DNA of 64,000 bases. It comes from Neodothiora populina (Eukaryota). Numbering within the stretch: the stretch's first letter is position 1; each line of letters starts with the position of its first letter. The position numbers and the translations under genes are program-made. The stretch spans positions 186,001 through 250,000 of the forward strand of contig NW_027191410.1 of the NCBI RefSeq assembly GCF_041146345.1, given 5' to 3'. The notes below the pieces were generated by a model, which saw only the letters and a program-made list of their open reading frames with translations, was not told where the DNA came from and ran no database searches. Of this stretch, positions 52,575-56,638 are shown in pieces.

Positions 52575-54035
52575 TCATGGAGCACAGTCCACAACGATCT
52601 TGATGAGATTCTCCAGCCACACAGTAGAATGCACATCCTGGCAAGCGAGCTGCCATTCTCCTTCCGTAGAGATTGTTGTCAGACCGCCTGAAGTAAGAAC
52701 CTTGACGGTGTAGGTGTCTGACATGTCTGCAACGGCCTCCGAGGGGTCCTCACTCTGCGCCATTTCATTTCTGAAATTCTGCACTTCCTGTGTCAAGAGC
52801 TGCCAGTCAAGGTGCTCATGTAAAGCATAATCAACGCGATCACGTAACAGCTGTTTGGTGTCCTTGTCGAGCATGTAAATCTGATATGCCGGGGTCTGTG
52901 CCAGCCTTGGGTCGAAATTCTGCTGCGCAGAGTCATTGGATTGACCATGAGAGTTGGCGTCATTCTCCTGGGTGTTGTCCACATCGTTCTTGTTGTCTGT
53001 CTTTCCGACCTTGCGAGACTCCACAGCATACTGTCTTTGACGCTCGTTGGTGACCATGCGCCTAAGTAGTGGTGTGCAGAGAGCGATAATTCTGTCCTTG
53101 TCGTGGGGCCACAGGAACTTGCGTCTGTGAGATTCCGAGGGGTTGCCTCCATCGTCTGGAGGCGGGGCGTTCTCGCCAAAATATTTCTCTCCCCAGCCAT
53201 CCTGCTCGAGGAATTCTCGGACGCAGTGGTGTAGTCTCAATTTTACCATGTCGCTGTCGCCCTTGCCTCGATTACCGACACATGCCTGTCGTTGGGGATA
53301 TTCAGGATCCAGCATGAACTGCTTCGCGGCGGCTTGCAGATATAAGAAATTCTCCGGTGACAGCTCCAGGGATGCGAAAAGTTTAGACATGGGGGGCCGA
53401 GTGTATTTCTTGGATGAATCTGAAGGCGGACGGAATAGAGCAGCTGCAGAATGCACCCCAGCAGCGCGCGCATCGAGATGATGAGGCGATTCAATCGGAT
53501 TCGAGTGCTGCCTCAGAGAGACATGTCCTTCTTGGTTCTGCGACTCAGACGAAGCAAGAGTAGTGCGCTTCTGGCGCTTGGGACGGTCAGAGAGAACGCT
53601 GTCGAGAGATAATTCGGGGTCGGCGTCTGTTTCGTCTGGGTGAGATCGTTTGCGCTTGCCATTGGGGCGCGTCGCATCGCGTTGTAACAAAGAAGCCAGC
53701 TCTTGCTCCGAGGAATCGATGTGGGGTTCTTCGTGGGCTGCGAATTGCGGCAACTGCGGTAGCTGGGCTCGTTGGCGAATCTGTTCCTGAGCGGCAGCAC
53801 TGGTGGCAGCCTCAACAAGGCCTTGCAACTGCGCATGGTCTTCTACCTCGTTCTCGACAAGTTGCTGCTGAGTGTGGTGATAGCCAGCGTCCATTTGGGT
53901 TTGATTGGGGTCTGGGTACATCGAGGCAGGCGGAGCAAGGGCGGCATAGTCCAGAAGCCCCTGAGACAGCTTGAAGTCATCGGAAGCATTCTGCTCCGGA
54001 GGCACAGGTTGGTAGTAGGGACCATTGGAGGCCAT
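52575..54035 (-). CDS. Uncharacterised fungal protein (possible nuclear protein)
   Basis: Long intronless ORF, likely start MASNGPYY at 54035. NLS-like KRKR and KRQKR motifs; ordered core KKYTRPPMSKLF..LQAAAKQFML..PLLRRMVTNERQRQYA. Confidence 0.78.
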   Translation of the reverse strand: MASNGPYYQPVPPEQNASDDFKLSQGLLDYAALAPPASMYPDPNQTQMDAGYHHTQQQLVENEVEDHAQLQGLVEAATSAAAQEQIRQRAQLPQLPQFAAHEEPHIDSSEQELASLLQRDATRPNGKRKRSHPDETDADPELSLDSVLSDRPKRQKRTTLASSESQNQEGHVSLRQHSNPIESPHHLDARAAGVHSAAALFRPPSDSSKKYTRPPMSKLFASLELSPENFLYLQAAAKQFMLDPEYPQRQACVGNRGKGDSDMVKLRLHHCVREFLEQDGWGEKYFGENAPPPDDGGNPSESHRRKFLWPHDKDRIIALCTPLLRRMVTNERQRQYAVESRKVGKTDNKNDVDNTQENDANSHGQSNDSAQQNFDPRLAQTPAYQIYMLDKDTKQLLRDRVDYALHEHLDWQLLTQEVQNFRNEMAQSEDPSEAVADMSDTYTVKVLTSGGLTTISTEGEWQLACQDVHSTVWLENLIKIVVDCAP

Positions 54036-54730
54036 GGCGAACCAAGCGCTAGCGAAGGGATGGATGGATGTATGGATGTCCAGCCACGCGAGGCTTGAGG
54101 CGTGTACAGGAGACGAGAAAGACACAAATCGACGGATCGAAAGCACCTCTGCAACAGTGTTAGTCTGGTGACGCGCAGGCTCGTGAGCTGTCCATCTTGA
54201 CGAGCAAGGCGGCGGGAGTCGCGACACTCATGGTCAGATTGAACACGGATCACGCGCAGCAAGACGAGGTCTAGATAAATTTATGATGCGCCCGGCAGGT
54301 GGAACAAGTGTGACAGGGAAGGATGGAGATGGTATAGACTTGCCCGCTATGAGAAGCTGTTAAGAAAGCTCCGATCTTGTGGATCTATCTGGATCTTGTC
54401 AAACACAGAGTGATGCAGGTCAGTTTGCTCATTTCACATTCACACGCTGCCTGCGCTGTAATAGATGCACACGGCAGGAGAGAGATGGCTTCTGCCAAGC
54501 AACCTCGAGCCGAAGTCTGTTGCTCTTGGCATCTTCGCATCGAGCAAGTGCTGCACCTGAGGATCAACAATCGCATACTGTCCTGGTTTTGTACAGTTGC
54601 CCGTGTTATTGTCATTTACATAAAAGTACAGTACGGTGCTCGAGTGCGGTGCAGTCCATCTCTCTGAGATGCTTCGTTTCAGACCAGCATCTTCCTTGAA
54701 ACAACAGCTCTCAGACCTCGACTCCCCGAG

Positions 54731-55209
54731 ATGAAGGTCAAGATCCTCTCTTGGAACGCTGTGGCAGCGTGGAGATGGGACATGCCAGAAGATGAAGTCT
54801 GTGGCATCTGTCGTGTACAGTTCGACGGAACCTGTCCAAAGTGCAAATTCCCCGGCGATGATTGTCCCATTAATAAGTCACTCCCAAAAGCTGAGAGCTA
54901 TGAATATCATACTGACTTTTGAGCAATCATGGGACAATGTAACCATTCGTTCCATATGGTAGGACCTGATACTAGTAGTTGGAAACATTGTGAGACTAAC
55001 AATAATGCTCCAGCACTGCCTAAATACTTGGATCAACCAAGAGTCCAGTCAGGGAAGGTGTCCCATGTGTCGTCAAGGTGTGTATCTTCGAGCATACTGT
55101 CTACTAATCCATATCTCGGCACTATTTGCTCACACCTGGTTCACTAGTCTTTCATATCAAGGGGACAGACCAAAGCGAGGCACAAGTCGAACATCAATCC
55201 CCTGCATAA
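54731..55209 (+). CDS. APC11: Anaphase-promoting complex subunit 11 (RING-H2), 4 exons
   Basis: MKVKI..WNAVAAWRW..CGICRVQFDGTCPKCKFPGDDCPI|IMGQCNHSFHM|HCLNTWI..CPMCRQ|VF. Introns 54873-54926 (non-canonical), 54959-55013 and 55078-55147. Confidence 0.93.
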
Positions 55210-55386
55210 AAACCACGCCGAAGCATGCTATGTTCCATGATGACTCCATTTTTGTTCTTGGGCGTACAGCAAGTCATCATCCGGATGTTCCCCTTGCTAG
55301 TCTGCGTCAATCCTACCATCTAATCTACCAATATGGCTTACTCTCGTGTCGTCTTTGCATGATTGCTGTGCCATAGACACACTATG

Positions 55387-56638
55387 CTATGTCTGTCGTA
55401 GTCTCGCGAGCGTGGCTTTGCCTGCGCGACTTTCGTTGGGTTTCCCAACTTCAGACGTAATCCAGTCACCAATACTGCTGAGTTCGTTCAGGTCCACTCC
55501 GGTTCCGAGGCCGAGGCTATGCAGTATATATACGACGTCTTCAGTCGAAACATTACCAGTAGCGCCTGGACTGTAGGGACAGCCTCCGAGTCCACCAACC
55601 GCCGAGTCGAACGTCCGCACGCCATGTTCCAGTCCGACCAGAGTGTTGACGAGGGCTTGACCGTAAGTGTCGTGAAAGTGAAGTGCAAGATCATCGTTGC
55701 GGATGCCTGCTGCCGCAAGGACCTTCAGCAACTCCCTCGTCCTAGGCGCTGTTCCCATGCCTGTCGTGTCGGCCACAGATATCTCATCCGCGCCCATCTC
55801 GAGGAGGGTAGCTGACAGTTCTGCAACTCTGTGCGGATCAGTATCAGGGCCCTCGAACGGACAGCCCAGAGCTACAGAGATGTAGGCTCTGACCGCGAAT
55901 CCCTTGTCACGGGCTGCTGTCATGAGAGGCCCGAATCTCTCAAGCGACTCGGCAATGCTACAATTAGTGTTACGCTGGGAGAACGACTCTGTGGCGGCCA
56001 TGAATATAGACACTTCGTGGCGAGGCCCGTGGGCTTCAATGTGCGGCGTGGACTGCGAAACCGGTGGAGGCGTGGGCGGAGGAGTGGGATATGCGTCCTG
56101 ATGGGTTTGATCTGTTTTGTTCGCTCCTCCATACACAGAAAAGAAGTTGTCGAGGCCTTTCATGTTCGGCAACAACCACTGATAGGTGATGGGCACCGGA
56201 GATTCCGGAGTATCACTGAGAACATCCTGCATGATCTTGTCCGAATTTGCCATCTAGAGTCTGTACTCAGCGATGTTATATTTCGCCCGAAGTCCATTGG
56301 GACTGGTACTGGCACTTTGTATCCTTGTGCGTTTACATGAAAAAGGTTGCTGGATGCACTTATGTACTCACCTGAGGCACCCATTTCGGTGATACGAAAG
56401 ATCCGGCTTCGATAGTCTGCAAGCCAGTCCTTGCCAAACGCCTGACGAGTTCGACTTTCGTTTCTAATGTTATTGCTGTCTTTTCATTCTGCAGACCGTC
56501 TCGAGGCCCGACTTCGACGAGTCGTACATGGTCCGAGGCAGCTCCAGTACTCCGCTTCGGGGCCGCGGTAGCGAAACTACGTTGGCTTATCTGTCTCGCA
56601 TAGCGACTCAATTGTCGGGTCTCTATGCTTAGAGGCAT
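55387..56638 (-). CDS. Hydroxymethylglutaryl-CoA lyase, mitochondrial
   Basis: VEVGPRDGLQNE, SFVSPKWVPQ|MAN, ADTTG, LHFHDTYGQA, GLGGCPYSPGATGNV; intron 56254-56371. Confidence 0.95.

Follow-up and report, generated by a model that had tools for sequence, protein, structure and literature searches.

The window, a stretch of 64,000 nucleotides of Neodothiora populina DNA, carries on its + strand a four-exon APC11 gene whose coding sequence, 300 nt including the stop codon, specifies a product of 99 aa (Table 1). Exon 1 alone (47 residues) scores 53.4 bits against the Pfam family PF12861 (zf-ANAPC11), for which the cut-off is 25; the relative P0002 scores 125.9 bits against the same family. The best named protein matches to exon 1 are the APC11 proteins of Delphinella strobiligena (96% identity) and of Aureobasidium species (91%), which places the source of the window close to these two genera. 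A protein search with exon 1 gave 304 hits among 304 candidates in the class of longer proteins, and among these and a further 81 hits of near length, no protein in the collection is identical to exon 1. The exact 63-aa ORF obtained by reading through the end of this exon is likewise absent from the protein collection.

When the product is assembled from all four exons, 82 of its 99 residues agree with the Delphinella protein and 86 of 99 with an Aureobasidium protein. The RING core, with an AT-AA splice applied at intron 1, is equal in length to the cores of P0002 and P0005 and shares 75 and 73 of 79 residues with them, respectively. The pattern of Cys and His ligands in this spliced product is complete and its spacing is conserved. 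By its PF12861 match, its full Cys/His pattern, and a length of 99 aa that is the same as in Delphinella, the product corresponds to Apc11 (ANAPC11), the RING-H2 subunit of the anaphase-promoting complex (APC/C). The protein itself shows no difference from known Apc11, and the intron ends alone deviate.

At the closest locus, L001, exon 1 encodes an identical protein, and the 25 of 141 bases that differ from the window are all synonymous. Judging from sequence, the APC11 gene is under constraint, because the spliced coding sequence matches named APC11 proteins, the differences of exon 1 from L001 are synonymous, and the PF12861 score lies above its cut-off. Over the stretch 54300-55500, the sequencing run X1 (described below) holds 1 record at a likeness of at least 80%, and no close second copy of APC11 is seen there.

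Table 1. Features of the APC11 locus, in coordinates of the window
Feature	Position	Strand	Remarks
5′ UTR of APC11 transcript	54591..54730	+	54591-54871 matched by X2 contig record 2, 0 other letters; 54591 is the start of this contig and not a mapped transcript start
Exon 1 (coding)	54731..54872	+	ATG at 54731; 47 codons, then A as first base of a split Ile codon
Inverted repeat bridging intron 1, 5′ arm	54861..54870	+	perfect, 10 bp
Intron 1	54873..54926	+	54 nt, AT..AA ends; skipped in X2 contig; orthologous place in relatives
5′ splice site ATAAGT	54873..54878	+	matches GTAAGT at +2 to +6; A at +1
Branch site ACTGAC (putative)	54911..54916	+	sole YTRAY motif in intron 1; presumed branch A at 54915
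Unused AG	54922..54923	+	8 nt past branch A; if used, intron of 51 nt and product longer by one residue
3′ splice site CAA	54924..54926	+	TAG or CAG here in relatives; pyrimidine at -3
Exon 2	54927..54958	+	32 nt; X2 record 2 (54926-54958) and translation
Inverted repeat bridging intron 1, 3′ arm	54929..54938	+	same 10-bp repeat
Intron 2	54959..55013	+	55 nt, GT..AG; X2 joint 54957 to 55013 (cut +1), side 29
Exon 3	55014..55077	+	X2 record 4 and translation
Intron 3	55078..55147	+	70 nt, GT..AG; X2 joint 55075 to 55146 (cut +2), side 28
Exon 4, coding part	55148..55209	+	stop TAA at 55207-55209

Intron 1 and Its Possible Splice Sites

An initial annotation, made from the sequence of the window, had proposed that APC11 requires a noncanonical AT...AA intron. 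Its observation is confirmed, and all of its coordinates proved right when the sequence was read again: exon 1 ends in ...GDDCPI plus an A at 54872, and is followed by ATAAGT, by ACTGAC, and by GAGCAA, which ends at 54926 and precedes TC ATG GGA. As it had also stated, retention of the intron places a stop codon (TGA, 54920-54922) in frame, and removal of 54873-54926 yields ..DDCPIIMGQC.., with four residues between Cys and Gly as in relatives. The distance from the presumed branch A to the last base of the intron is 11 nt. The same cut can be written as 54872-54925, with AA..CA ends, since 54872 and 54926 are both A. We favor the AT..AA reading on the basis of homology with the introns of relatives and of its fit to the 5′ splice site consensus.

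Other ways to join the exons in frame exist. The annotation had taken 54864-54923 to be the only GT-AG option that preserves the frame, which is incorrect, given that GT donors at 54834, 54813, 54810, and 54801 also reach the acceptor at 54923; GC donors at 54855, 54843, and 54804 are likewise in frame with it. It was right, however, that use of 54864-54923 deletes the cysteine of DDC, and all in-frame GT or GC options to 54923 remove this residue or more. The AT 5′ site can also be joined in frame to the AG at 54923 (51 nt removed, one residue added) or to an AC at 54934-54935 (54873-54935; 63 nt removed, three residues fewer). Every in-frame option other than AT-AA alters the spacing of the zinc ligands or loses a Cys.

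Relatives Carry a GT-AG Intron at the Same Place

When metagenomes were scanned with alignment A1, 585 stretches matched; 239 of them encode relatives, and the best 80 of these 239 were kept. A script then sought, in each locus, an intron that keeps four residues between the cysteine of DDC and the Gly-x-Cys motif. A GT-AG intron exactly 7 nt past the DDC Cys codon was found in 73 of the 80 loci; 2 of these 73 also permit an AT-AC reading two bases upstream, and 1 permits GC-AG. In the window, no GT-AG, GC-AG, or AT-AC option keeps the spacing, and an AT-AA option lies at the orthologous offset. Set against the best 80 of the 239 relatives, the window is the only sequence so lacking.

The other loci fall into two groups. 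Five of the 80 have no intron at the conserved position (L029, L034, L043, L048, and L062); intron 1 may have been lost in some of these lineages, and others of the five may be cDNA contigs. In L048 and L062, an intron beginning with GT seems to be retained at the following position (after ..FHM), as judged by eye. The remaining two loci were not scored, one because its exon 1 motif was not found (L017) and one because exon 1 is joined to exon 3 (L009). In the latter, an Aureobasidium-like APC11 (L009:150-290), exon 1 is joined to exons 3 and 4 such that the 32-nt exon 2 is skipped and the frame is shifted. This contig looks like a spliced transcript with exon skipping.

Several loci are duplicates, and the 73 GT-AG introns reduce to 59 distinct sequences. 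All 59 begin with GT, in 16 types of hexamer among which GTATGT (11 times) and GTAAGT (10 times) are the two commonest, and they end in TAG (36) or CAG (23). A YTRAY motif is present in 52 of the 59, with its branch A located 4-21 nt before the last base (median 12, mostly 10-13). In 17 of these 52 introns, an earlier AG that lies 3-9 nt past the branch A is left unused, and the same would hold for the AG at 54922-54923 of the window.

When the window is aligned with nine close loci (ten sequences in all), G occupies both column 54873 and column 54926 in nine of nine loci, and A occurs in the window only. L001 carries GTAGGC...GATAG at the place of intron 1. The alignment of this intron across related genomes, which had been suggested as a check on the original proposal, therefore finds GT..AG in 73 of 80 loci and the window as the sole exception at both ends. 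The AT..AA ends are more than chance, because the two alignment columns concerned show no other deviation and the As fall at the ends of an intron that is GT..AG in 73 of 80 relatives.

Protein records of the relatives agree with such an intron. Annotated relatives read ..GDDCPIIMG(N/Q)C.HSFHMHCL.., and prokaryote-style gene calls on genomic contigs of relatives read ..GDDCPIS(M/K).. (P0003, P0004, P0006, P0008, P0011, and P0014). In P0011, read-through reaches exon 2 and re-enters it as ..FVSVMGQC. The GDDCPIS(M/K) and FVSVMGQC pattern is the one expected from a phase-1 A/GT...CAG/TC intron.

A Contig From the Same Sample Lacks Intron 1

Two runs of one sample, X1 and X2, cover the locus. Whether each derives from RNA or DNA is not recorded, and the tool guessed “DNA?” for both. 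X2 consists of 763,876 short records and has no cover on 54300-54586. Its record 2, of 314 nt at depth 4.67 and with 0 mismatches, places 281 letters on 54591-54871 and 33 letters on 54926-54958. The joint from 54871 to 54926 skips 54 nt and, with one shared letter (A), is equivalent to a joint from 54872 to 54927. Thus, the junction predicted by the initial annotation (54872^54927) is present as a contig joint in a run of unrecorded kind, and the 54-nt skip is the only one listed in X2 for intron 1. Joints also occur in X2 at the GT..AG introns 2 and 3 (Table 1), where the shorter sides of 29 and 28 letters are below the 31-letter rule of the tool.

X1 has none of the three intron joints. It provides one long contig, at depth 34, that is identical to the window over 54300-55500. 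An examination of the bases at 54873 and 54926, also advised at the outset, finds A at both in this contig; X1 is possibly the source of the window itself, so that the agreement is not independent.

We infer that X2 is RNA-derived, because joints are found at all three introns of one gene and none is found in the DNA-like X1 of the same sample. If X2 were DNA, then the joined form would be a processed copy and would be expected in X1 as well, and X1 is without such a form. It is unlikely that the joint is an artifact, because it has a single shared base, matches the orthologous intron exactly, and restores the conserved protein. The contig shows that intron 1 is removed precisely in nucleic acid from the same sample. 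This finding rests on one contig from one sample, and contigs drop rare variants and rare forms.

X2 also includes unspliced contigs over intron 2 (record 3; 54929-55042) and intron 3 (record 6; 55048-55175), and both spliced and unspliced forms of these two introns are therefore present in the sample. Among the X2 contigs listed, there is no unspliced contig of intron 1, an observation that carries no evidential weight.

A Probable U2-Type Intron With A at Both Ends

We consider it likely that, in the one APC11 gene observed, intron 1 represents a natural U2-type intron whose terminal GT..AG has changed to AT..AA, and that it is removed at the ancestral junctions to give a normal Apc11 RING-H2 product. 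Apart from its terminal base, the 5′ site fits GTRAGT. A CTRAY motif (CTGAC) occurs in the range of about 10-15 nt from the 3′ end, and removal at the predicted junctions is observed in the X2 contig (kind of run unrecorded). The 5′ site and branch site motifs thus support the reading as a natural U2-type AT-AA intron that had been put forward in the initial annotation, and suggest this class assignment. From motifs and lineage, we infer the dependence of intron 1 on the major spliceosome (U1, U2, U4, and U6 snRNPs), as we do its branch point and the efficiency of its removal.

In the mechanism that we propose, U1 and U6 would recognize the 5′ site through a perfect match at +2 to +6 (UAAGU), which would offset the mismatch at +1. 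U2 would pair with ACUGAC, and the A at 54915 would make the lariat. At exon ligation, the usual G-G pair of end bases would be replaced by A-A, by analogy with A-C in U2-type AT-AC introns, and the 3′ site would be taken at the usual 11 nt from the branch point. The AG located 3 nt upstream would be passed over because it is too near the branch, has a purine at -3, and would be mismatched with A at +1. We propose that each single change is defective alone, and consequently that the two are interdependent.

A perfect 10-bp inverted repeat, whose arms are listed in Table 1, allows the end of exon 1 and the start of exon 2 to pair across the intron. All ten pairs are also present in six Aureobasidium-like loci with normal GT-AG introns (L002, L003, L005, L006, L007, and L010), and the other 66 scored loci have 2-8 of ten pairs at this place. 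The fold of the helix is ordinary (z = -1.53; 20 of 200 shuffles fold as well), its covariation is not above that of shuffles (137 of 500), and by codon reasoning 7 of its 10 pairs are forced by the amino acids. On these grounds, we rejected the helix as a selected structure. It is probably a by-product of the codons, although it might still help splicing.

Alternative Explanations

Several other accounts of these observations must be weighed. The intron might truly be GT..AG in the cells that produced the transcript, with the two As being sequencing or assembly errors, or coming from a single allele or nucleus in a mixed sample. X1 is possibly where the window came from, contigs lose rare variants, and a spliced contig is silent on the ends of the intron, given that spliced RNA cannot reveal the intron ends of the pre-mRNA. 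However, this account needs two errors placed exactly at the first and the last base of one intron. It is made quite unlikely by the absence of other letters in X1 (depth 34, min_share 1) and by the exon and 5′ UTR letters of the X2 contig, which are identical to the window over 314 nt. Alternatively, the X2 joint might be no splice product of the present locus at all, but an artifact of reverse transcription or assembly, or DNA with an old processed copy, in which case the gene would be unspliced or spliced otherwise. The unrecorded kind of X2 fits with this possibility, as does the fact that a processed copy could predate the G-to-A changes; moreover, the joint is found in one contig only (depth 4.67), and a 10-bp inverted repeat flanks the intron. 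Nevertheless, we judge such an origin very unlikely. The deletion matches the orthologous intron of 73 relatives to the base and restores a conserved protein, the 1 letter shared at the joint offers no direct repeat for template switching or for a false graph path, and the joined form retains the inverted repeat with its two arms, in contrast to the outcome of a hairpin skip. A processed copy is also at odds with X1, which in the same sample shows neither the joined form nor a second copy at 80% likeness, and an unspliced gene is at odds with the exclusively synonymous differences between exon 1 and that of L001.

Different routes for the processing of a transcript that carries both As can also be envisioned. 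Editing of A to I, read as G, would present the spliceosome with GU..AG, a reading that the initial annotation had already ranked as less likely. Both deviations are indeed A for G, and some filamentous ascomycetes edit mRNA by way of Tad2/Tad3 (PMC11156358). According to that source, however, known fungal A-to-I editing is confined to the sexual stage, has a strong preference for U at -1 and for hairpin loops, and is reported only in Sordariomycetes and one Pezizomycete; neither Aspergillus nidulans nor Botrytis cinerea showed it (PMC11156358). The sites in the window do not fit the known fungal motif, as 54872 and 54925 are both A rather than U. APC11 would be needed for mitosis in vegetative growth, which further counts against editing confined to the sexual stage, and we find this explanation highly improbable. 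Removal by the minor spliceosome, as a U12-type intron, might be considered given that AT-AA is the commonest noncanonical end pair of this class (PMC10639083) and is listed only there in the tabulated part of PMC1557818. Against this, the introns at the orthologous place in relatives are of the ordinary GT..YAG kind, and their U2-type 5′ sites vary. The consensus motifs of U12-type introns are ATATCCTT and TCCTTAAC, and intron 1 has ATAAGTCA at the 5′ site in place of /ATATCCTT and CATACTGACTT in the branch region in place of TCCTTAAC. The sequence /ATATCCTT is given as the U12-type 5′ site in a passage of PMC5029451, and the relevant passages of PMC10639083 report no convincing minor introns or snRNAs in Ascomycota; a U12-type identity is therefore extremely improbable. 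Lastly, the main product could result from joining the AT 5′ site to another 3′ site, as AT-AC (54873-54935) or AT-AG (54873-54923), with AT-AA as a minor form. Both options are in frame, and AT-AC is described as a known U2-type pairing, yet the only skip listed in X2 is that of 54 nt, though contigs drop rare forms. Both options also alter the Cys-x4-Gly-x-Cys spacing, from which no scored relative departs, and this possibility is highly doubtful.

RIP acts in a TpG context. That RIP-like mutation produced the two G-to-A changes was rejected by reasoning only, as both Gs would follow A.

Comparison With Known Introns

The favored reading, a U2-type intron with AT and AA ends, can be placed within a published framework. 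An intron's first base and its last base make up a non-Watson-Crick G-G pair at exon ligation, and other end bases are usable if the interaction is kept, such as the A-C of AT-AC introns, according to the portions of PMC11585973 and PMC6461851 that treat this pair. When +1 is G, a clash would result from A or C as the final base (PMC10711555). U2-type splicing is described as having less freedom in its end pair than U12-type splicing (PMC2831892, in part).

U2-type AT-AC introns (“AT-AC II”) are known from human SCN4A and SCN5A, from fly TAF2, and from a nested intron of yeast RPL30, and have been hypothesized in fungal xylanase genes, as outlined in the sources available. Like intron 1, they have A at +1 and a strong U2-type 5′ site, for which a very strong /ATAAGT consensus is reported (PMC5029451, in part). 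They also resemble it in their ordinary branch site and in having the first and last bases changed together. However, the last base is C in AT-AC II introns and A (54926) in intron 1, whose termini are thus AT and AA rather than AT and AC. Intron 1 would therefore work like an AT-AC II intron, yet is no strict member of this group. The yeast RPL30 case accounts for 1-2% of transcripts (PMC5029451, same section), whereas intron 1 is constitutive and interrupts the coding sequence of a conserved gene of the cell cycle.

The U12-type AT-AA introns of animals and plants have the same terminal dinucleotides and, as described in the texts available, show that an A-A pair can pass exon ligation in a spliceosome. 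Unlike these, intron 1 is without a U12-type 5′ site or branch motif, and its orthologous introns are of the U2-type GT-AG kind. The first-base and last-base suppressor pairs of yeast and human introns provide another comparison, and were reportedly engineered by Parker and Siliciano in 1993 and by Chanfreau et al. in 1994. In such pairs, a G1-to-A change is combined with a second change at the last base, and the two bases pair noncanonically at ligation (PMC1557818, PMC11585973, and PMC6461851, each in part). The rescue described in the available text of PMC1557818, in both yeast and human, is by a G-to-C change of the last base and is less efficient than wild type, whereas the A-A combination seen here is of natural origin and fixed in the one genome observed.

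A search of the literature on AT-AA and AU-AA introns found no U2-type AT-AA intron in the portions of the sources available, where AT-AA occurs only among U12-type termini. For example, the tabulated part of PMC1557818 counts 24 AT-AC II introns across five species and contains no AT-AA intron of U2 type, and its Table 2 lists AT-AA solely among U12-type introns (8 cases, five species). In a large fungal survey (PMC7072748), AT-AA is absent from the main text and one supplement, and the full splice-site tables of that survey may hold cases. A search of the 64-kb window against Rfam gave 0 matches, and thus no match to an snRNA. Given these comparisons, intron 1 is best filed as a new variant among the known U2-type introns that start with A.

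Implications

The rule that an intron's first base must match its last derives mainly from mutants engineered in yeast and human and from cryo-EM structures. Intron 1 presents a natural case in which both end bases have changed from G-G to A-A, in a gene that needs correct splicing and whose orthologues have GT..AG at this place in 73 of 80 loci. If confirmed, this would mean that a major spliceosome accepts A-A as an end pair in addition to the known A-C. The case also raises the evolutionary question of how a valley between two defective single mutants was crossed. On a practical level, APC11 of this genome would be cut short or lost altogether by standard gene predictors.

A broader speculation is that the major spliceosome of this lineage tolerates or even prefers introns with A at the start and an A-A end pair, and that such introns are scattered through the genome and missed by predictors. 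Removal of intron 1, possibly aided by the helix, might then be a slow step that sets the dosage of Apc11 and so of the APC/C. We regard this extension as unlikely.

Neighboring Genes

Upstream of APC11, a 550-aa ORF occupies 52575-54227 on the - strand and has no Pfam match at E 0.001. On the other side, an HMGL-like gene (55387-56253, - strand) is arranged tail to tail with APC11, with 177 nt between the APC11 stop codon, which ends at 55209, and the end of the HMGL-like ORF at 55387. One X2 contig of 1406 nt spans 55146 to beyond 55500. Because this contig runs from 55146 past 55500, the transcripts of APC11 and the HMGL-like gene may overlap.
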